DNA of 64,000 nt from Bryobacterales bacterium (GCA_963752695.1 CAVVZB010000001.1:430989-494988), one strand, 5' to 3'; numbered from the stretch's first letter, positions 5,492-15,467 are shown. Numbers and translations are program-made. The notes: generated by a model from the sequence alone, not told the origin.

Positions 5492-5554
5492 ACACGCTGT
5501 TCGAATCGCCTGTACACTGAGACAGACGCAGGTTTCAAAAACGCCAATTTATTC

Positions 5555-6154
5555 ATGATTCCAGGAAGAAATTTCCCGCCCCGCCGACAAAACCGTCGTG
5601 AAAATGTAAATGAATCGATTCGTGCCCGCGAAGTCCGGGCGGTATTTCCGGATGGTACAGCGGAAGTAATGCCTACTGCCGCAGCGGTAAGGAAGGCCCA
5701 GGACATGGGCCTCGATCTTGTCATCGTCTCCCCGACGGCCGTTCCACCGGTCGCTAAAGCTGTCGATTTTGGGCATTATCAGTACGAGCAAAAAAAGAAA
5801 CAGCACGACGCTAAGAAGAAGCAGCACGTTGTCCAGGTCAAGGAATTGAAGTTCCGGCCCAACACCGACGATCACGATTACGATTTCAAGAAGAATCACG
5901 CGATTCGGTTTCTGCAGGAAGGCAATCGAGTGAAAGCCGTGGTTCAGTTCCGTGGTCGCGAAATTGCCCACACGGACCTAGGCAAGCGTTTATTGACCCG
6001 GTTTTCGGAAGACTTATCGGCTTTCGGAACTGTGGAAGGCATTCCACGTATGGAAGGCCGGAACGCCCATATTTTGATCAGCCCGAGCAAGGCTCTGCAA
6101 AAGGCCGCAGAGACCGCCAAAGCCGACCAACCTAAGAAGGAAGCAACGACGTAA
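5555..6154 (+). CDS. infC: Translation initiation factor IF-3 (possibly a paralog)
   Basis: NESIRAREVR..LDLV..PPVAK, KELKFRP...HDYDFK, VKAVVQFRGRE, PRMEGR motifs. Confidence 0.93.
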   Translation: MIPGRNFPPRRQNRRENVNESIRAREVRAVFPDGTAEVMPTAAAVRKAQDMGLDLVIVSPTAVPPVAKAVDFGHYQYEQKKKQHDAKKKQHVVQVKELKFRPNTDDHDYDFKKNHAIRFLQEGNRVKAVVQFRGREIAHTDLGKRLLTRFSEDLSAFGTVEGIPRMEGRNAHILISPSKALQKAAETAKADQPKKEATT

Positions 6155-6177
6155 GTGACAGGTAGGTTACTACTGAT

Positions 6178-6300
6178 TCACGGGCGGGGGATAGGTACCG
6201 GCGTTAAAAAACGCCTCGGAGTGCCTGGGCCGCCTGGAAAAGTCAGCGCGGCCACGAGCACGAAAAACAGCACAGCAAGGGTAAGCAAATCCTGATTCAT
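6178..6300 (-). CDS. Small 40-aa single-TM protein with Pro/Gly-rich tail, last gene of the ligase operon
   Basis: MNQDLLTLAVLFFVLVAALTFPGGPGTPRRFLTPVPIPRP*; ATG 38 bp after the stop of 6339-7538. Confidence 0.5.
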   Translation of the reverse strand: MNQDLLTLAVLFFVLVAALTFPGGPGTPRRFLTPVPIPRP

Positions 6301-6338
6301 GGTTCGCCTGAAGCTAAATTGTCTTGGACGCTTTCAGG

Positions 6339-7538
6339 TTACCATGTTTCCGGCGGGTAAAACCCCGCCGACGCGCCGACCCAATCCAAATTTCGGTTCT
6401 GGTCGACGCCCATCATCTTTCCGCGGCCTGTACGGATGATCGTGTTCACAGGCTTCAGGCCTCCAGCCGCGCTAAGATACATGACGCGAACTTCGGCTTT
6501 CGCCCACCCCGGCGGAGTATCTATTGTCGCCGCGAAATCAACACGCTCCTGCAAAATATAGTCCCGGCGGCTCGCCTCTGCAATCCGTCCGATGTCTTCC
6601 CGGGTCGGCCCAATTTGAACCCCCAATCCCGCAAATGAGAACAGCGGCTTCAGCACCAACTGCTCCGGCGGTAGTGGCAAGTCCCGCACTTGGTCCAGGA
6701 ACCAAGTTCCAGGCACCGTCTCATGCCGGAACCAGGGTAGTGAAAACTTACTCAGCCGGAAAAACCAGTTCGGATGCCCCGCCCACTCGACATCCAAATC
6801 GTCGCGGAAATCAAAGTTTAGTTGAATGTCCCGCCGGATCAGCTCATCCGCAATCGCCCGATTGTAAATGCGCCGGATCGGCATTCGCTTTCCTTCCATC
6901 AGGTGGAACAGCCGGTTGCCATCTTTACGGACATTTCGGATGTCCACGGTCCGAATGCCGCAAATCCGTTCCGTAATCAGGAAGTCCGCAAGCGTCTTTT
7001 GCTCTTGCGGATCAACTTCAAGCAACACAACTTCATCCGGATCGTGCGCGCCTACAACAACGCTGCGTAATAGTGCTTCGTACCCCGATTCGTCCAGCCC
7101 CCCGAGTAACGTCTCAAGGGTGGAATCCAACTCGTACACCTCGCGATAGGCGTTCGCCAGCATCACCTGAAATCCGTAGAGCGAAGGGAAGCCCTGAATC
7201 TCTACAAGACGCGGCGCCCAATCACCGTTTGCATCCCGGATGATCCCGAAATCAGCTTGCACGAATAACGGCTGCTCGGGACAATTCGGGACATTGAACG
7301 CCGGCGGTATTACCTTTTCGGCCGCTTTCAGATACTCGGCGTTACCTACCAGTTGCGCCACCAATTCTTGTCCGGCCTCGACCATCTTGCGAATCAGATC
7401 GCCGGGGAAAAAGCACGCTGTCTCACTGCACCGGAACTTCACATGCGCGCCACTGCGAATGTCAATCTCTCGAAGAAAACGCGCGTACTTCTCTGGCGTG
7501 AAGCGCGCGTTGAAATCGCGGCGGAGGTCTGCAATCAT
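6339..7538 (-). CDS. Circularly permuted ATP-grasp / glutathionylspermidine-synthase-like amide ligase
   Basis: ADFG...RLVEIQGFPS, LVLKPLFSFAGLGV, YILQERV, EVRVMY motifs; ATG 7538 overlaps upstream TGA (ATGA). Confidence 0.65.
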   Translation of the reverse strand: MIADLRRDFNARFTPEKYARFLREIDIRSGAHVKFRCSETACFFPGDLIRKMVEAGQELVAQLVGNAEYLKAAEKVIPPAFNVPNCPEQPLFVQADFGIIRDANGDWAPRLVEIQGFPSLYGFQVMLANAYREVYELDSTLETLLGGLDESGYEALLRSVVVGAHDPDEVVLLEVDPQEQKTLADFLITERICGIRTVDIRNVRKDGNRLFHLMEGKRMPIRRIYNRAIADELIRRDIQLNFDFRDDLDVEWAGHPNWFFRLSKFSLPWFRHETVPGTWFLDQVRDLPLPPEQLVLKPLFSFAGLGVQIGPTREDIGRIAEASRRDYILQERVDFAATIDTPPGWAKAEVRVMYLSAAGGLKPVNTIIRTGRGKMMGVDQNRNLDWVGASAGFYPPETW

Positions 7539-8563
7539 GCGCCGTCGAACACGAACCGGCCGTGATCCATAATTTGCCGATCGTCCAGCCAAATGCTGAA
7601 TTCCTTGCCCACCACGTCGATGTGCGTCGCCGAATACCAGTCCGCGCCAGTATGAAATCCGTAAGGATTGCCAAACGCGATGTGGACACCCGGGATCTTC
7701 TCGTCTTGCAGAATGTTTCCGATTACACCGGTCAAGCCAACGTTTGTGCCGATGGCAAACTCTCCCACTCGATCGCTATTTTCGTCCGTGTGCGTGTAAT
7801 CCCAGAACTCCTTTTCGAGCTCCCGGTTTGCACTATGGGCTTCCACAAGGCGGTTCTTCTCGATCCGAACTGTCAGAGGCTCCGCTTGTAAATTCCCGTA
7901 CTTGGCGCAGAGGTAATCGCCGACCACTCCGTCAATGACAAAGGTCCCGTTGACTTCTCCTGGCGTCGTAAACGTCTCTCCGCCAGGGAGATTACCCCAC
8001 TTTTGCGGAGAGATGATCCCGCTGGTCTTCACCCAACGATATTCCGGATTCATGTCCGCCACGATATCCGTTCCCGCTGGTGTTGTCGCGCGGATCTTTC
8101 GGGCTGCGCCCGCGTTCTTGCAGATGATTGAACTGATCCGATCCACCTCGAGATAGTCGGCGCGCATTCCTTCCAACATAATCTGCTTGGTGATGTTGAC
8201 CATGTGGGCGTGCCGGATCCCACGCCGATTCACCACATCGGTCATCTGCATGCGCGTCTTCAACTCCCCAAGCTGGGCTTGTACCGCGAAAACGCTCACC
8301 TGGCTCGATTCCATGTCATCCAGAATCACCTGGGGCATGTTATTCAACGGCCGATCGGCATAATCCTCAAGGACAAATGCCTGGTGCCGCGAGCCCAATC
8401 GCTCGAGTTGATTCACAATCGATGCCGCGACTTCCACGGTCGCTCGATCTGTGATCACCGTGGTCTTCTCCGTTTTCTGCACCCTCAGACAAACATTTAC
8501 CGCGTTGTAAGCCCCTGGGGAAAGTTCCGGATCGAAGTGCATGCTACTAAGCGCCCCTTGCAT
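7535..8563 (-). CDS. Aminopeptidase, M29 / leucyl aminopeptidase-like
   Basis: NLPGGETFT, GEFAIGTN, DEKIPGVHIAFG, THID motifs; alternative start ATG 8542. Confidence 0.8.
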   Translation of the reverse strand: MQGALSSMHFDPELSPGAYNAVNVCLRVQKTEKTTVITDRATVEVAASIVNQLERLGSRHQAFVLEDYADRPLNNMPQVILDDMESSQVSVFAVQAQLGELKTRMQMTDVVNRRGIRHAHMVNITKQIMLEGMRADYLEVDRISSIICKNAGAARKIRATTPAGTDIVADMNPEYRWVKTSGIISPQKWGNLPGGETFTTPGEVNGTFVIDGVVGDYLCAKYGNLQAEPLTVRIEKNRLVEAHSANRELEKEFWDYTHTDENSDRVGEFAIGTNVGLTGVIGNILQDEKIPGVHIAFGNPYGFHTGADWYSATHIDVVGKEFSIWLDDRQIMDHGRFVFDGA

Positions 8564-9694
8564 CTAGCTCGCGCCGAGGGCCGCGGCATCGTAAACCCCC
8601 ACCTCAGTTTCCGAAATGATGTAATCCACCACGCGATGGAAGTCGCCGGTCTCCCGGTATACACGCAATTGACGGTCGGCGCCACTGCCGTTTCTCAGAA
8701 TCTGATGGATGTACTCGAGTTCCTTGCGCGAGCCGAGATCGTCCACAACATCATCAACAAACTCCAGGTACTCGTCCATCAATACACGAAGCGGAACTTC
8801 GGACTTCTTACCGAAGTCGATGAGACTTCCATCTAATCCGTAGCGCAGTGCTCGCCATTTATTCTCCATAATGAGTGCGCGCCGGTAGAGCCGAAAGCCT
8901 TGGTTTGCCGAATACAACTTATATAGCTTCGCCACTGTCGCCTGGATCAGAGCCGCGATCGCGATTGTCTCGTCCACCCGCATTGGCACATCGCAGCAGC
9001 GGAATTCCAGCGTGGGGAAGTTGGGGTGGGGCCGAATGTCCCACCAGATCTTCTTCGCGTTATCAATGCAGTTCGTTTTCACCAACAGGCTGACGAAGCT
9101 CTCATACTCGCCGTAGCTCGGAAAATAGTCGGGGATGTTGGTGCGCGGAAACTTGTCAAACACTTTGCACCGATACGATTTCAGCCCCGTATCCATTCCC
9201 AGCCAGAACGGTGAGTTCGTGGATAGCGCCAGAATGTGCGGCACAAAGTAGCGCGCCGCGTTCATGATTTGAATCGCAGTTTCCCGGTCTTCCACACCCA
9301 CGTGAACATGCAATCCAAAAATCAGGTTTGCGCGCGCCACCATCTTTAGATCTTGCACAATGGTGTGATAGCGCTCGTCCGGATAGATCTCCTGATTGCG
9401 CCAGTCCGCGAAGGGGTGGGTTCCCGCCGCCGCCAGCCGCAAGCCATTCTTGCGCGCCAGCTGAATAATTCCATGCCGAAGCTCGGTTACGTCGCTCCGC
9501 GCTTCCTGGATATCACGGCAGATCCCCGTACCCACTTCGACTACCGACTGATGCATCTCCGCCTTCACGCGCTCTTTGAGTAGCAGCTTCCCCTTTTCGA
9601 GAATTTCTGCTTCTAAGTGCGACCGTAGATCGCGCGTGACCGGGTCAATCGTCTGATACTCTTCTTCAATTCCGATTGTGAAGCTGGGTTGCAT
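8564..9694 (-). CDS. ybdK: Carboxylate-amine ligase, GCS2/YbdK family
   Basis: TIGIEEEYQ, VEVGT, FGLHVHVG, WWDIRP, TLEFR, ENKWRA.RYG motifs. Confidence 0.9.
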   Translation of the reverse strand: MQPSFTIGIEEEYQTIDPVTRDLRSHLEAEILEKGKLLLKERVKAEMHQSVVEVGTGICRDIQEARSDVTELRHGIIQLARKNGLRLAAAGTHPFADWRNQEIYPDERYHTIVQDLKMVARANLIFGLHVHVGVEDRETAIQIMNAARYFVPHILALSTNSPFWLGMDTGLKSYRCKVFDKFPRTNIPDYFPSYGEYESFVSLLVKTNCIDNAKKIWWDIRPHPNFPTLEFRCCDVPMRVDETIAIAALIQATVAKLYKLYSANQGFRLYRRALIMENKWRALRYGLDGSLIDFGKKSEVPLRVLMDEYLEFVDDVVDDLGSRKELEYIHQILRNGSGADRQLRVYRETGDFHRVVDYIISETEVGVYDAAALGAS

Positions 9695-9697
9695 GGT

Positions 9698-10630
9698 TCA
9701 CCCCCGTAGAAAAGATGCCCACCGGAGTTCTTTGGCAGGTTCATCGTCGCTGAGTGCCTTCTCAATCGCGAACTTGGCGACTTCCGTTACGATCCACTCG
9801 AAATTTGCCGGCCCAACCGAGTGAATGTCAGCATCCGGCGCCGGGTTCAGGAAATCGATGGCGTACGGCACCCCATCCTGCACGGCGAACTCGACGGTAT
9901 TTAGATCGTAACCGAGCGCCCGGCACAATGTTAGGCTGTCGTCATGCACCCGTTGGAGCAATCGGGGATTCACTGGGGGGCCGTCCAACACGTAGCGTTC
10001 CGCGTGGGGATTCCGCGGATCGTATTGCATGATGTGCACGGCCCGCTGTCCGACCACGTAACACCGGAAGTACTCCTGAAACTCGATTCCCTGCTGAAGC
10101 GTCATGCAGAGATCGCCCGTTTCGTCGTAAGCCGCAAACAGTTCCTGAGGATTGTGAACCTTATAAACGCTCTTCCAACCGCCGCCGCTGTACGGCTTCA
10201 GGAACGCCGGGAATCCAATATATTCGAACACCTCCTCCCAATTCAAAGGGTAGATGAGGTTCCGCATCGATTTGCCGGTGGTCCCCGGCGGGTTAACCTT
10301 GTGAGGCAAAATTACCGTTCGTGGAACCGCCACTCCGATCTTCGACGCTAACGCGTAGTTGAAGAACTTGTCGTCCGCGCCCCACCAGAACGGGTTGTTG
10401 ATAACGAAGGTCCCACTTAACACCGCATTCTTCAGATAAGCCCGGTAAAACGGGATATCGTGCGAAATTCGGTCCACAATTACGCTATACCCCGACGGTT
10501 CGGCCATCCTCACCGCGCCGATATGAATGTGCTCCGCCACCACGTCTTCAATGTTCCATTCATTGATCCGGTCGACCAACGCCCATGGAAACGTGCTCTC
10601 CATCCCGTAGATGATTCCGATTTTTCGCAT
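9698..10630 (-). CDS. RimK-like ATP-grasp protein
   Basis: DRISH, VINNPF..ADDKF, FLKPYSGGGWK, LQQGIEF..YFRCY, EFAVQDGVPYAIDF.NP. Confidence 0.8.
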   Translation of the reverse strand: MRKIGIIYGMESTFPWALVDRINEWNIEDVVAEHIHIGAVRMAEPSGYSVIVDRISHDIPFYRAYLKNAVLSGTFVINNPFWWGADDKFFNYALASKIGVAVPRTVILPHKVNPPGTTGKSMRNLIYPLNWEEVFEYIGFPAFLKPYSGGGWKSVYKVHNPQELFAAYDETGDLCMTLQQGIEFQEYFRCYVVGQRAVHIMQYDPRNPHAERYVLDGPPVNPRLLQRVHDDSLTLCRALGYDLNTVEFAVQDGVPYAIDFLNPAPDADIHSVGPANFEWIVTEVAKFAIEKALSDDEPAKELRWASFLRG

Positions 10631-10637
10631 GCCGACC

Positions 10638-11354
10638 TCAGCCGAAGTACTTCACCGCCATCTGTTGCCAGAACGGCCAATCATGTTTGATACCCGCACC
10701 CCAAACGTCCATCCAGTGCGGGATACTCTTGTTGCCCAATGTGCGCGCCATCCGCCAGTTCTCATCCAAACAAGGGTCCCATTCGGACGTGGCCAGAACG
10801 ATCCGGCTATTCTGCCGGTAACGCTCCAACGTGTGGTGATCGGTCATCCCTTGCACATAATCCGGGGGACAGTTGAAATAACAATTGTCGTCGTAATAAT
10901 GCCCAAGGAACTGGTGAATGTCAAAGGCGCCGCTCATACTCACGCAGTCGCTGAAAACCCACGGTTGTTTGAGCGCGAAGTTCATCGAGAAATATCCACC
11001 GAAGCTGCATCCCGTGGTCCCGAGCCTTGGGTTCTGGTTCTTCGTCCGAATAAGTGGCACCACTTCATTCAGAATGTAGCTCTCATATTGCATGTGGCGC
11101 TGCACACGCTGGGCCGGATGCACATGCCGGTTATACCAGCTTTCGGTATCCACGCTGTCCACGCAAAACGCCTGCATGTGCCCTTGTTCGTATTGCCAGT
11201 GCACGGCGCCGATCATTCCGTTATTCTCATAATCGTAATAACGGCCCCGCGACGATGGGAAGGCGATCAGCGGAAATCCGCCATGCCCGTAAATCATCAG
11301 TTCCATCTCCCGTCCGAGCGACGGGCTCCACCACTTGTGATATTCGCGATGCAT
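10638..11354 (-). CDS. Alpha/beta-hydrolase esterase family protein
   Basis: MHREYHKWWSPSLGREM start, GCSFGG nucleophile elbow, HDWPFW; start moved to ATG 11354, 4 bp after the upstream stop. Confidence 0.85.
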   Translation of the reverse strand: MHREYHKWWSPSLGREMELMIYGHGGFPLIAFPSSRGRYYDYENNGMIGAVHWQYEQGHMQAFCVDSVDTESWYNRHVHPAQRVQRHMQYESYILNEVVPLIRTKNQNPRLGTTGCSFGGYFSMNFALKQPWVFSDCVSMSGAFDIHQFLGHYYDDNCYFNCPPDYVQGMTDHHTLERYRQNSRIVLATSEWDPCLDENWRMARTLGNKSIPHWMDVWGAGIKHDWPFWQQMAVKYFG

Positions 11355-11358
11355 TCGG

Positions 11359-12597
11359 TCAGGGTTGAGAATCGATTTCGAATTTATGTGGCGCAGGCTG
11401 CGCGGCGGCATGCTGCTGCTGCACCAATTCAGCTTCTAACTCGTCCATCGCCTTCATTGCCGTTTCCTTACTGGATGCGCTCACGGCAGCTAGTGGAACC
11501 TGAATTTCACGCCATCGCGCATTATGCGTTTGGGCGTGTTTGCGCGTTAAATCGAGCACTGCGGCCGCCTGCTGCATCATCGGGGTATCCAGCTTCGCAA
11601 GGTTAATTCCGGCGCTCCACTCCTCGCCACTGAAGCTGCCCACGGCGCGCCCATCGATCTTCAACTGCCACTTGCCCGCGTGCAACCCGTCGATCTTCAA
11701 GATTTCCTGGTCCAGAGCCTGTAGAAAATCAGAAGAATTGACCGCCAGCGTCACCAGTGGGTCTTTCCAGTCAATCGGCATTGGCAGCGCCTTCTCCGTT
11801 ACCGTCCAGCTGCCGCCGTTCCAATCCGTGACTTCGGCATTCGTAGACCGATCGATATGATGCGTCCGCATATTCAGCGCCACATCGCTGACCACAGAAG
11901 GTGCGCGCCAGGCTTTCAAAAGCGACTCCGCCATCAGAAGATGACCGGCGGGGCCGGGGTGAATACGGTCGGGAATCAGCTTCTTGGCGGCCGCCGCGTC
12001 GGTCTCACTGGCCTTTTTCAAATCCGCGACTACCGGCGTATTCAGGTCGGCTGTGTCGATCTTGTCCGCTACCGCCAAATCGTGAATGAACTTGGAATAC
12101 CGCTGGAGCACGGCGTTATAACCGCCTTCAAATCGCGGGGGCTGCGTGACGTCATCAAATGGAGAGGGCTGAATGGCCGTGATCCGCGCTTTTGGCAGCG
12201 CGTTCTGAATCACCTCCACAATATGCTGATATCCTTTCTGAAACGTCTCGAAAGTCGCCGGGTCGAAGGCTTTGTATCCACCGTCGTTCATGCCAAGCAT
12301 GATGGTGACAACAGTCGGCTTATAAGCTAAGACATCGCGTTCCAACCGAAGGTCCACCGGTCCGCCCCCGCCGCCGCTCACCCGATCGCCGCCCCACCCC
12401 GAGTGCACGAAAGTGACGTTCTGAGCCGGGAACCGCGTAATGGCAAATGTTTCCGTGAATATCGTGTAGAGACGCTGATCGGTGATGCTATCTCCGTAAA
12501 ACACCACGCGATCGCCATCGCGCAGGTAGAATCCGGACTGTCCCCAGAGTCCGAACGCCGCCAAAAGGAGCAGGGTCAAAGTCTTCGGGAAAACCAT
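11359..12597 (-). CDS. Exported SGNH/GDSL hydrolase
   Basis: Signal peptide; GDSIT, GWGG, GMNDG, DRIHP blocks. Confidence 0.85.
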   Translation of the reverse strand: MVFPKTLTLLLLAAFGLWGQSGFYLRDGDRVVFYGDSITDQRLYTIFTETFAITRFPAQNVTFVHSGWGGDRVSGGGGGPVDLRLERDVLAYKPTVVTIMLGMNDGGYKAFDPATFETFQKGYQHIVEVIQNALPKARITAIQPSPFDDVTQPPRFEGGYNAVLQRYSKFIHDLAVADKIDTADLNTPVVADLKKASETDAAAAKKLIPDRIHPGPAGHLLMAESLLKAWRAPSVVSDVALNMRTHHIDRSTNAEVTDWNGGSWTVTEKALPMPIDWKDPLVTLAVNSSDFLQALDQEILKIDGLHAGKWQLKIDGRAVGSFSGEEWSAGINLAKLDTPMMQQAAAVLDLTRKHAQTHNARWREIQVPLAAVSASSKETAMKAMDELEAELVQQQHAAAQPAPHKFEIDSQP

Positions 12598-12662
12598 TCG
12601 AATGAGTGTATCGCATGGAGCTCACTGACACCGTTGTGCAGTTGATAGTGCTCCGCCGATCG

Positions 12663-13174
12663 TCAATCGTTCGAGTGGTAGGCCGATACGACTGAGCAGT
12701 TCCTGCAAGAATGATTTACCATTTCCTTCCGGCGTTGTCGGTGAAGGTGTCATGCGGTGCCGCGTCATCGCTGCTTGGCGCCTTTTCAGAGGCCGAATCG
12801 CAGATGTTGGCGAAGAAAGGGGAACCCTGGGCGCATATCGGGCATGTCATTTCCTGCGGGTTTAAGATCACGGGAAACCCGCCAATTTGATGCTGCTGCG
12901 TCGTCCACAAGTCCAAAGGAACCTTCAGCAGCTCAACACCGGCGTCCTCCATGATGCGGTAACTGAACACGCCAAACGGAATACTTCACGCCAAAACAGT
13001 ACAGGAGACGAATGGCAGGCGTTACAAAGGCGTCCAGGTTGAGTCGCGCTTCAGCAGCATCCAGCGAGAGCGCCCGGAGTAGTGGCTCGAACAGTTCGGA
13101 CAGATTGCGCCCTTGATCTCGGGCGCTCCGCAAAACTCATGCGCAATCTCAGACCTCTGCGGATTGAAGTTCAT
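12663..13174 (-). pseudogene. Relic of a CxxC-rich protein (YwqG/DUF1963-like, tentative) broken by about 3 frameshifts
   Basis: Three track ORFs in different frames join into one plausible protein: HEFCG..CPNC / EPLLRALSLD..LLYC / FSYRI..HQIGG..CPIC..DNAG / EMVNHSCRNCSVVSAYHSND*. Confidence 0.55.
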
Positions 13175-13307
13175 TCTATAGCCATTTTGGGGATTGCTCG
13201 TCCGTGGCGTCTCCATAGGTAGGGAGGAGAACAGGGCGACGGCAGCATCCGCCAGGCTCCAAACACATTCAATCGCGCCGAACGCTCACGAGATACACTC
13301 ACGAAAC

Positions 13308-15467
13308 ATGTCTAAGTTCTTGCTGCCGCTCTTCGCTGTACTCGCCCTTTCCGCCCAGGTAACTCCGGTGCCCGATCGCAAGCTTTGGTATTTGAATACC
13401 GCGACATCCAGCTACGTCGTGGGTATCAATGAGCGCGATCAACTGCAGAACCTTTATTGGGGCGGCCCTTTATCGGGCCAGACGGATTTCGCGACCGCCC
13501 ATTCCACCCCCGAGCGCTCCAGCTTTGACCCTTCCGAAACCCGCACGCGCGAAGAGTATCCCGCGTGGGGCGGAACGCGTTTTAATGAACCCGCTCTGAA
13601 GATCACGCGGGCCGATGGCGACCGGGACCTCGTGCTCATCTACCGGAGTTCCCGGAACACTCCCAACACGCTCGAGATCGAAATGCGCGACAGCCAGGAC
13701 CCCATCTTCGTGACGCTCTTCTATCGCGTCTATCCCGCTCTCGGGATCCTTGAGAAACACGCCCGGATTCGCAACGGCACGCGGGGAGTCTTGCACCTGG
13801 AGAGCGCGCAGTCGAGCGTGTGGTCCATGCCGCCGGGCGATAACTACAACGTCACCTACGTCTCTGGCCGCTGGGCCGCTGAAGACCAACTCACGCGCAC
13901 ACCCATCCATGCTGGCACGAAAGTTATCGAGAGCCGCCGCGGTAACACCAGCCACAATGCCAACCCTTGGTTCATGATCGATGAAAATAACGCCACTGAA
14001 GAAAATGGACGGGTCTGGTTTGGCGCGCTCGGATGGTCGGGCAATTGGAGACTGGCCATTGAACAGACGCCCTACAATCAGGTGCGCGTTACCGGTGGCT
14101 ACAACACCTTCGACTTCGATTACCCGCTCAAACCAGGCGAATCCCTCGACACGCCACCCTTTTACGGAGGCTTTTCCGCCCATGGATTTGGCGGGGCGTC
14201 TCGTACCCTGCATCGCTTTGAACGCGAGGCCATCCTCCCGGGCGGCGTCCAATCCCGCGTGCGCCCCGTGCTGTACAACTCCTGGGAGGCGACCACCTTC
14301 AACGTCGATGAGCCTGGGCAAAAGGCTCTCGCCGCTAAAGCCGCATCCATCGGCGTCGAGCTTTTCGTGATGGACGATGGCTGGTTCGGCAAACGCAATG
14401 ACGACCATGCCGGCCTAGGTGACTGGACCGTAAACAAGCAGAAATTCCCGAATGATCTCCAGCCTCTGATCGCCGAAGTCAATCGCCTAAGAATGGATTT
14501 CGGGCTGTGGGTGGAACCGGAAATGGTCAATCCAAATAGCGAACTCTACCGCGCTCATCCCGATTGGGTGCTGAATTTCCCTGGCCGCCCCAGAAGCGAA
14601 CTCCGCAACCAGCTCGTGCTTAACCTTGCGCGCCCTGACGTGAAAGAGTACATCTTCGGATTTCTCGACCGGCTCGCCACTTCTTACAACATTCGCTATT
14701 TCAAGTGGGATATGAACCGGTCCATGTCGGAGCCGGGTTGGCCGGCTGTCGCCGCAGCAGACCAGAAAAAAGTATGGGTTGAATATGTCCGCAACTACTA
14801 CGAAATCCTGGACCGCATCCGCGCCAAGCACCCAAAGTTGGAGATCGAGTCTTGCTCCGGCGGCGGCGCCCGGATCGACCTAGGCGTGCTTCAACGCGTC
14901 GATGAGGTCTGGGTTTCCGATAACACCGAAGCCTTCGACCGCCTGCATATCCAGGAAGGTTTTAGCTACGCGTATAGCCCCAAGATCATGTCCGCCTGGG
15001 TGACCGACGTGCCTAATATGAACGGCCGCAGCACGCCCCTCCAATACCGGTTCTTAGTGGCAATGCAGGGCGCGCTCGGCATCGGATCGAATCTAAATAA
15101 GTGGGCGGCCGAAGATTTTGAGCTCGCCCGAAAAATGATCGCGCTCGACAAACAAATTCGCTCGACCGTGCAAACTGGCTCGCTCTATCGCCTGCTCTCC
15201 CCTCGCGATCACGACGTTGCCTCGAACGAGTATGTTTCCCAGGACGGCCGACAAGCTGTTGTTTTCGCCTTCCGTCACTCGCAGGAGTTCGACTTGCCCG
15301 CTCCAGCGATCCGGCTACAAGGACTAGACGCCGGCGCGGCGTACAAGATCACCGACCTGCGCGGCCGGGCAAGCGAACACACTGGGGCTTTTCTGATGCA
15401 GCAGGGCTTGGAAGTCAGGCTTGCCGGCGACTACGATAGCGCGCTTCTGACTATCGAACGCCAGTAA
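13308..15467 (+). CDS. Alpha-galactosidase, GH36, with signal peptide
   Basis: YNSWEA, FVMDDGWFG, FGLWVEPE, YFKWDMNR, ESCSGGG motifs; start ATG 13308 (MSKFLLPLFAVLALSAQ). Confidence 0.93.
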   Translation: MSKFLLPLFAVLALSAQVTPVPDRKLWYLNTATSSYVVGINERDQLQNLYWGGPLSGQTDFATAHSTPERSSFDPSETRTREEYPAWGGTRFNEPALKITRADGDRDLVLIYRSSRNTPNTLEIEMRDSQDPIFVTLFYRVYPALGILEKHARIRNGTRGVLHLESAQSSVWSMPPGDNYNVTYVSGRWAAEDQLTRTPIHAGTKVIESRRGNTSHNANPWFMIDENNATEENGRVWFGALGWSGNWRLAIEQTPYNQVRVTGGYNTFDFDYPLKPGESLDTPPFYGGFSAHGFGGASRTLHRFEREAILPGGVQSRVRPVLYNSWEATTFNVDEPGQKALAAKAASIGVELFVMDDGWFGKRNDDHAGLGDWTVNKQKFPNDLQPLIAEVNRLRMDFGLWVEPEMVNPNSELYRAHPDWVLNFPGRPRSELRNQLVLNLARPDVKEYIFGFLDRLATSYNIRYFKWDMNRSMSEPGWPAVAAADQKKVWVEYVRNYYEILDRIRAKHPKLEIESCSGGGARIDLGVLQRVDEVWVSDNTEAFDRLHIQEGFSYAYSPKIMSAWVTDVPNMNGRSTPLQYRFLVAMQGALGIGSNLNKWAAEDFELARKMIALDKQIRSTVQTGSLYRLLSPRDHDVASNEYVSQDGRQAVVFAFRHSQEFDLPAPAIRLQGLDAGAAYKITDLRGRASEHTGAFLMQQGLEVRLAGDYDSALLTIERQ

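Follow-up and report, generated by a model that had tools for sequence, protein, structure and literature searches.

Five neighboring genes in a soil acidobacterium very probably form one functional module, and we put at roughly 60% the probability that this is an amidoligase module independent of nonribosomal peptide synthetases (NRPSs), in which small peptides or peptide-amides are built stepwise and trimmed by hydrolases. The genes, g2 to g6, lie behind a sixth gene, g1, in a 64,000-nucleotide stretch from a Bryobacterales bacterium (GCA_963752695.1 CAVVZB010000001.1:430989-494988), hereafter the window. All six are co-directional open reading frames (ORFs) on the minus strand, and the gaps from g1/g2 to g5/g6, read from the sequence, are 4, 7, 3, 0, and -4 bp, the last being an ATGA overlap. 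Genes and spacings match exactly those of the original prediction, which was made from the sequence alone and described the six as an operon of amide ligases and hydrolases; from gene spacing alone, we likewise infer an operon. The features are as follows.

g1: 12597-11359, minus strand, 412 aa, SGNH/GDSL hydrolase with signal peptide
g2: 11354-10638, minus strand, 238 aa, alpha/beta-hydrolase (Esterase PF00756)
g3: 10630-9698, minus strand, 310 aa, predicted classical ATP-grasp ligase, RimK/LysX-like
g4: 9694-8564, minus strand, 376 aa, YbdK/GCS2-family carboxylate-amine ligase
g5: 8563-7535, minus strand, 342 aa, short M29-family metallopeptidase
g6: 7538-6339, minus strand, 399 aa, predicted circularly permuted ATP-grasp ligase

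The functional link that had been proposed among these genes is supported by strong co-conservation of g2 to g6. We compared the six window proteins by tblastn with 80 acidobacterial loci found through g6, and the order g2-g3-g4-g5-g6 was kept in 80 of 80 loci with enough flanking sequence. By contrast, a g1 homologue stood upstream of g2 in only two of the 80, both from the closest Bryobacterales relatives (L001 and L002). The conserved unit is therefore five genes and not the six of the original set. Inserted genes in many Terriglobia loci fall in several unrelated families, and the g2-g6 order persists around them. Acidobacterial classes farther from the window organism, with g6 identities of 36-43%, retain the arrangement g3-g4-(g5)-g6, and g2 usually adjoins g3 there, often divergently or on the opposite strand. 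The order g3>g4>g6 also occurs, with an esterase nearby, in a metagenome-assembled genome labeled Bacteroidetes, which has no g5 homologue anywhere in the genome. Within a Bacteroidota sample, the g6 family was present in 74 of 301 genomes (~25%), and the loci that we fetched again read g3>g4>g6. The gene set is thus conserved in at least two bacterial phyla.

Presence and absence across genomes followed a nested pattern. Among 301 sampled genomes of the window's own phylum, Acidobacteriota, g6 occurred in 42 (14%), g4 orthologues in 93, and g3 orthologues in 91. Every g6 carrier also had g3 (42/42), and 38 of the 42 had g4. The g3 and g4 genes occurred together in 71 genomes, with an odds ratio of 30 and a Fisher p of 7e-31 that ignores phylogeny. 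Because the profiles are nested, they suggest that g3 and g4 make up the older core, with g6 acting downstream of g3.

Three of the five conserved genes encode predicted amide ligases. The best supported by sequence models is g4, a YbdK/GCS2-family enzyme with a glutamine-synthetase-like fold, which matched PF04107 (GCS2) at 223.9 bits against a cut-off of 21 and the NF010039 carboxylate-amine ligase model at 557.6 bits against 371. It also matched the E. coli YbdK structure (1r8g, E 4e-53), fell below the cut-offs of glutamate-cysteine ligase equivalogs (e.g., NF010043, 379.9 vs. 409), and is the sole GCS2 gene in the genome. For g3, sequence searches returned only sub-threshold matches to the RimK family, LysX, and Ddl, as well as a weak biotin carboxylase match. 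Its score against the RimK family TIGR00768 was 29.7 bits (E 4e-7), well under the cut-off of 143.4, and no Pfam ATP-grasp model reached its threshold. An AlphaFold model of g3 (pLDDT 87.8, built from 21 homologues) gave Foldseek TMq values of 0.70 for LysX and 0.66-0.67 for RimK, with the LysX/ArgX/RimK group spanning 0.66-0.70. The best E value was to Ddl (4e-15), and ATP-grasp ligases of ribosomally synthesized and post-translationally modified peptides (RiPPs), PsnB among them, also ranked high. Judged by this model, g3 has an ATP-grasp fold of the classical type and appears to be RimK-like in fold only, rather than a member of the RimK family proper.

The third ligase, g6, had no Pfam match even at E ≤ 10, including PF04174 and PF14403, no NCBIfam match, and no PDB match by single sequence or family profile. 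Still, its AlphaFold model was of high confidence (pLDDT 91.9, pTM 0.91), and the top 23 PDB matches in Foldseek were all circularly permuted ATP-grasp ligases, with E values from 5.5e-15 to 1.6e-8. This bears out an assignment that had been guessed without any search tool. The best structures were 3n6x (5.5e-15), 2hgs (2e-14), 7uk8 (1.2e-13), and 2io7 (1.1e-11), followed by others such as 1m0w, 7uk6, and 9cjn, and the matches included human and yeast glutathione synthetase, YgiC/YjfC, E. coli GspS, and Cp1B, a fungal E-64 ligase. The g6 protein has no CHAP amidase domain. Its family comprises 1684 clusters at 50% identity and is a large one covered by no Pfam or NCBIfam model.

Taken across Pfam, NCBIfam, and structure models, the fold calls originally made for all six genes held. 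However, the description of the trio as three unrelated folds was wrong: there are three ligase families, but g3 and g6 are both ATP-grasp proteins, g6 being the permuted one, so that the trio represents two fold classes. GCS2/YbdK and ATP-grasp enzymes alike make amide bonds through acyl-phosphate intermediates.

The remaining two members of the module are hydrolases. The g5 protein matched PF02073 (Peptidase_M29) at 50.7 bits against a cut-off of 27, but the match spans only profile positions 204-353 of 406, the C-terminal catalytic half, so that g5 is not a full-length M29 enzyme; a weak resemblance to the M29-like dioxygenase NicX (7cn3, E 1.6e-4) was also seen. The g2 protein matched PF00756 at 41.9 bits against a cut-off of 22 (E 1.3e-10), with Peptidase_S9 near threshold. 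We rejected g2 as an orthologue of S-formylglutathione hydrolase or enterochelin esterase, as its sole NCBIfam match scored 22 bits against a required 222. 

Residue conservation was assessed for g2 to g6 in 80-97 homologues each, down to 33-47% identity. A candidate triad in g2, Ser117 (within GCSFGG), Asp193, and His224, was kept in 80, 77, and 79 of 80 homologues, respectively. In g3, the ATP-binding Lys145, the GGG loop G149-151, and the Mg ligands E247, D259, and N262 were invariant in 89 homologues. The same was true of E10-E12, E53, H129, H131, and D235 of g4 in 97 homologues, and of E113, Q115, R223, R227, K297, E349, R351, R369, and G373 of g6, also in 97. In g5, five residues (E196, E268, H294, H314, and D316) were invariant in 85-86 of 86 homologues, and by comparison with the AmpS and PepS structures these are candidate metal ligands. 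Because the candidate catalytic residues are invariant or nearly so, all five proteins look like active enzymes.

The most informative result came from like-for-like swaps inside the cluster, which show the module to be combinatorial. Genomes with g3 and g4 but without g6 carried, in the cluster, a ~450-aa gene with matches to Pfam CP_ATPgrasp_1/2. These paralogues matched CP_ATPgrasp_2 or CP_ATPgrasp_1 at E values from 1e-9 to 1e-4, and one of the two models passed its cut-off, which one varying by protein: the L113 protein scored 37.5 bits against 32 for PF14403, and the L106 protein scored 27.9 against 23.1 for PF04174. The gene lay between g3 and g4, between g3 and the M29 gene, or before a gene for a protein resembling glutamine amidotransferases (GATase-like). 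An hhalign comparison of the g6 family with the cluster-resident CP_ATPgrasp-type proteins gave a weak match (E 5.7e-5, probability 66%), in which the motifs RIYNR/LVYRR, LVLKPLFSFAGLGV/LVLKPNDEYGGKGV, and YILQERV/YLVQERV were aligned, the second following the pattern LVLKP..G.GV. Because a PF14403/PF04174-type gene stands in the place of g6, two permuted ATP-grasp lineages occupy one cluster position.

A second swap concerned the M29 position, which immediately precedes the permuted ligase. The g5 gene is an accessory component that is absent or replaced in some lineages; it was missing in L083/G301 and L091, and its slot was sometimes filled by a ~300-330-aa GATase-like protein, both in Acidobacteriota (L093, L098, L099, and L111) and in the phylum Bacteroidota (L118 and L119). 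The slot protein is homologous over its full length (E 1e-11) to a PF00117 class-I glutamine amidotransferase (28.9 vs. 22.8 bits) whose own gene overlaps the start of a distant g6 homologue, and a CHSF nucleophile elbow and an HPE motif align between the two. PuuD (peptidase C26) and other stand-alone class-I GATase-like enzymes hydrolyze gamma-glutamyl amides. Because the swapped-in protein shares the enzyme class of PuuD, the replacement is, by analogy, the best if indirect hint that the module handles a gamma-glutamyl-type bond.

These observations make the arrangement far more than chance. That the genes are unrelated housekeeping enzymes lying side by side by accident is scarcely credible to us, even though each family has members with independent roles and the SGNH gene is itself an unrelated gene only 4 bp from the cluster. 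Gene order and adjacency hold both between classes and in another phylum, all g6 carriers are also g3 carriers, and members are replaced like for like within the cluster, none of which is expected of fortuitous neighbors.

The presence of a PuuD-class protein also raises the question of whether the module could be catabolic or for salvage: ATP-dependent gamma-glutamylation, as in Puu logic, would capture an amine, amino acid, or peptide from the environment, which the hydrolases would then process. The partners would suit such a salvage role (an M29 peptidase, the class-I GATase-like protein, and an alpha/beta-hydrolase), as would the patchy, accessory-like distribution and the position of some g6 homologues beside MatE, MFS, or SSF transporters, although in the MatE case g3 and g4 are ~13-18 kb away. 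However, three successive ATP-consuming ligations are hard to square with catabolism, and the cluster has no oxidoreductase, transaminase, or uptake system, all of which are present in Puu-type pathways. Nor is any regulator or binding protein conserved with the module. We therefore regard a catabolic function as highly unlikely.

A biosynthetic amidoligase module accommodates both the ligases and their exchangeable partners. In the scheme that we infer, in order as well as chemistry, g4 would convert a carboxylate (most likely the gamma-carboxyl of Glu) to an acyl-phosphate for ligation to an amine or amino acid. The carboxyl end of this product would then be extended by g3, and g6 would add the last amine, amino acid, or amide nitrogen. 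The g5 peptidase, or its GATase-like substitute, would remove an N-terminal and possibly gamma-glutamyl residue, either in maturation, with the gamma-glutamyl group as a transient handle comparable to that of EgtA/EgtC, or in turnover, whereas g2, with its putative Ser-Asp-His triad, would cleave another amide or ester bond. The product is probably a gamma-glutamyl-type peptide or peptide-amide. It is also probably intracellular because g2 to g6 all lack signal peptides and no exporter was conserved with the module in the surveyed loci. As a general idea, the ribosome-independent synthesis of a small peptide followed by trimming or recycling, which had been put forward from the sequence, stands.

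Several points weigh against this interpretation. The substrate, product, and reaction order are predictions. The closest structures to g3 (LysX, ArgX, RimK, and PsnB) belong to enzymes that act on protein or peptide substrates, so the substrate may be tethered instead of free. As for the GATase-like partner, it might be no hydrolytic counterpart of the M29 peptidase but a glutaminase that supplies the ligase with ammonia. Moreover, we chose the orthologue thresholds ourselves (E < 1e-120 for g4; E < 1e-75, plus one split copy, for g3), and the co-occurrence statistics carry no phylogenetic correction. Finally, many Terriglobia loci have intergenic gaps of hundreds of base pairs or inserted genes, and therefore the module is not a single operon everywhere.

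If the substrate were tethered, the ligases might modify a macromolecule or carrier, for example by adding a RimK-like C-terminal tail, by acting on a LysW-like amino-group carrier, or by attaching a reversible peptide tag, with the hydrolases as erasers. The best TM-scores of g3, to LysX, ArgX, and RimK, and the high rank of RiPP ATP-grasp ligases are in line with this, and the pairing of ligase and peptidase suits writer/eraser logic. Yet neither inside nor beside the module is there a conserved small ORF or a gene for a carrier, and in the window g2 to g6 abut (-4 to 7 bp). The ORFs inserted elsewhere are heterogeneous (DUF1801-like by eye, small membrane proteins, an M48-like peptidase), the gap ORFs of Terriglobia loci included no extra conserved component or precursor-peptide gene, and a 40-aa ORF after g6 is kept in only the two closest relatives. 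In addition, the known substrates of GCS2 ligases and of ligases of the glutathione-synthetase type are small molecules. Altogether, modification of a macromolecule seems unlikely.

A more specific alternative within small-molecule chemistry is that the module makes a low-molecular-weight, glutathione-like thiol or a glutathionyl-amine conjugate by a non-orthologous route, with g4 in the role of GshA, g3 in that of GshB, g6 in that of GspS, and the hydrolases in charge of recycling. The three enzyme types do parallel these three enzymes, and the best structures for g6 are glutathione synthetases and GspS/YgiC/YjfC. A reference cited in PMC13674229 ascribes weak gamma-Glu-Cys ligase activity in vitro to E. 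coli YbdK. The original prediction had named a glutathione-like thiol as one candidate product and proposed looking for gshA and gshB, and a profile search of the genome (3.7 Mb, 92.6% complete) found neither gshA (PF04262) nor gshB (PF02955). Together with g4 as the single GCS2 gene, their absence would leave room for a new glutathione-like route.

However, other results weakened the thiol proposal. The genome encodes BshC, the signature enzyme of bacillithiol synthesis, at 383 bits against a curated cut-off of 265.8, and it has no GST_N_3 (PF13417) glutathione transferase domain. Across the acidobacterial sample, a BshC match was found in 38 of 42 g6 carriers vs. 129 of 259 non-carriers (Fisher p 2e-7, ignoring phylogeny). 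With BshC present, GST_N_3 absent, and carriers enriched in BshC, the module therefore does not substitute for a missing thiol, although it could make a second, specialized one. Bacillithiol derivatives have, moreover, been proposed as the thiols of Acidobacteria (PMC6282198). A route to a thiol also fits poorly with the patchiness of the module, given that g6 occurs in 14% of the phylum's sampled genomes, with the lack of any match of g3 to glutathione synthetase models, and with the absence of a CHAP amidase domain from g6. We thus consider this alternative rather unlikely.

Even so, the path from glutathione to glutathionylspermidine and trypanothione (GshA, GshB, and GspS; YgiC and YjfC) is, by analogy, the nearest characterized counterpart to the amidoligase module in logic. 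It comprises three successive ATP-dependent amide ligations, carried out by a glutamine-synthetase-like (GS-like)/GCS ligase, a classical ATP-grasp enzyme, and a GspS-fold ligase, together with a hydrolytic turnover activity, and g6 matches the structures of GspS, YgiC, YjfC, and eukaryotic glutathione synthetase. By contrast, none of g3, g4, and g6 is an orthologue of gshA, gshB, or gspS, the CHAP amidase domain is lacking, carriers already have BshC, and there is no sign of cysteine or a polyamine as substrate.

Other precedents share parts of this logic. In mycobacterial ergothioneine synthesis, the GCS2-family ligase EgtA adds a gamma-glutamyl group that the amidotransferase-like hydrolase EgtC later removes, a precedent for the pairing of a ligase with a trimming hydrolase. 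However, the window cluster has no EgtB-, EgtD-, or EgtE-type genes, and EgtC is a class-II, N-terminal nucleophile (Ntn) enzyme. The cluster for the osmolyte N-acetylglutaminylglutamine amide (NAGGN) in Pseudomonas and Sinorhizobium combines asnO-ngg with an M42 peptidase. A cytoplasmic dipeptide-type solute is made there by an ATP-grasp-type ligase and an amidotransferase, with an aminopeptidase in the operon; the window differs in having no GNAT or AsnB-type amidotransferase, an M29 rather than an M42 peptidase, and three ligases instead of one.

The closest precedent overall is a prediction reportedly made by Iyer, Abhiman, Burroughs, and Aravind in Mol Biosyst in 2009 (reference 16 of PMC4431377) and summarized in the Pfam entry for CP_ATPgrasp_2. 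Neighborhoods of CP_ATPgrasp_2 (PF14403) amidoligases are said to combine a permuted ATP-grasp protein, a GCS2-like ligase, an alpha/beta-hydrolase, an amidohydrolase, and a metallopeptidase, and to have been predicted to synthesize small peptides. The window cluster can be viewed as a variant of that arrangement: g6, g4, and g2 likewise bring together a permuted ATP-grasp protein, a GCS2-like ligase, and an alpha/beta-hydrolase, and sister clusters in the same phylum carry a PF14403/PF04174 gene in the place of g6. The differences are that g6 matches neither PF14403 nor PF04174 and is tied to them by fold and a weak profile match; that the metallopeptidase is M29 here and reportedly M20 there; that the amidohydrolase of the variants is class-I GATase-like and not GAT-II/Ntn, as reported there; and that the classical ATP-grasp ligase g3 is the most constant partner here. 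The 2009 system is itself a prediction only, with no known product.

In contrast to the original prediction, the SGNH gene does not belong to the system. In addition to its presence at just two loci, g1 has a hydrophobic N-terminal signal sequence, unlike g2 to g6. It matched GDSL_2 (PF13472) in Pfam at E 1.8e-22 and contains the blocks GDSITD, GWGG, GMND, and DRIHP. We conclude that g1 is a lineage-specific neighbor outside the conserved module, although the 4-bp gap from the g1 stop to the g2 start means that it may be co-transcribed with g2. Upstream of g1, at 12598-13193 on the minus strand, one frame survives in pieces broken by stops (e.g., HQIGGFPVILNPQEMTCPICAQGSPFFANICD), and this region looks more like what is left of a decayed gene than like a clean promoter region.

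At the other end, a convergent plus-strand gene at 5555-6154 ends 185 bp from the g6 stop, and the cluster therefore ends with g6; judged by eye from its C-terminal translation, the product of this gene looks like translation initiation factor IF-3. Between the two lies a 40-aa ORF, MNQDLLTLAVLFFVLVAALTFPGGPGTPRRFLTPVPIPRP, at 6178-6300 on the minus strand, which starts 38 bp past the g6 stop; its N-terminal half is hydrophobic and its tail is Pro-rich. The ORF occurs at the same site with 63-66% identity in L001 and L002 and is not kept beyond these two; it may encode a small membrane peptide or be no more than conserved intergenic sequence. A promoter and terminator consensus scan of the gene block gave matches at chance level only and was uninformative, an Rfam scan of positions 5500-13500 for a leader or riboswitch returned nothing at E ≤ 0.1, and none of the six proteins matched the PADLOC anti-phage defense models.

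We also noted several variants of the cluster and of its members in other genomes. At 14 Terriglobia loci (L007, L021, L031, L041, etc.), a ~120-aa protein that looks DUF1801-like by eye is encoded between g3 and g4, and at other loci the cluster is interrupted by a gene for a small membrane protein or for an M48-like peptidase. In one genome (G178:C18:339466-340381), the g3 homologue beside g4 is in two pieces, residues 3-117 and 123-307, which may reflect a frameshifted pseudogene or an assembly error. At least one g6 homologue that appeared to stand alone (G154/L088) was rejected as solitary, as g3 and g4 are present 13-18 kb away. Extended reading frames near g6 homologues of high-GC genomes were likewise rejected as fusions, the ORF lists showing overlapping spurious frames, and a 469-aa ORF in L111 was discarded as a wrong frame, the CP_ATPgrasp-type gene there being the 445-aa frame.

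Distant relatives of g6 were more varied. Four of them (P0122, P0124, P0131, and P0134) are 549-586 aa long and have an N-terminal signal peptide and an Ala-rich extension of ~160-190 aa without a Pfam match; an exported ATP-dependent ligase would be unexpected. In P0128 (870 aa), a sodium:solute symporter domain is fused to a g6-family domain, and other homologues directly follow MFS or MatE transporter genes (L085 and L088), which hints that some members of the g6 family act on a transported compound. Another homologue, P0016, is 70% identical to the window g6 and comes from a 5.7-kb contig labeled as the gammaproteobacterium Nevskia soli by NCBI and UniRef, which suggests either acidobacterial contamination of that assembly or a recent transfer.

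Our literature searches found no experimental work on any member of the module and no characterized pathway for it, in agreement with the earlier statement that the arrangement has no defined product. A paper on a thiohistidine dipeptide does no more than mention one YbdK-like enzyme. Ligases of the YbdK/GCS2 type are widespread, but to our knowledge their physiological role has not become clear in the time since the E. coli structure was determined. In the present module, found in soil phyla that are abundant yet poorly cultured, such a ligase has a conserved setting of exchangeable parts beside two other ligases and two hydrolases.

More tentatively, and with considerable doubt, we propose that the three ligases make an undiscovered intracellular small peptide or peptide-amide, such as a gamma-glutamyl osmolyte, a nitrogen store, or a stress metabolite. 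If true, identification of the product would assign YbdK-type ligases, long orphans, their first physiological role and would establish a new enzyme family with a glutathione-synthetase fold. The swaps of g6 for a PF14403-type gene and of the M29 peptidase for a class-I GATase-like protein provide concrete and testable clues to the bonds that the module forms and cleaves, and the ligases could serve as biocatalysts for peptide bonds. The product of a three-ligase, NRPS-free route shared by many Acidobacteriota and Bacteroidota would, if real, be a new primary-like metabolite or cofactor.

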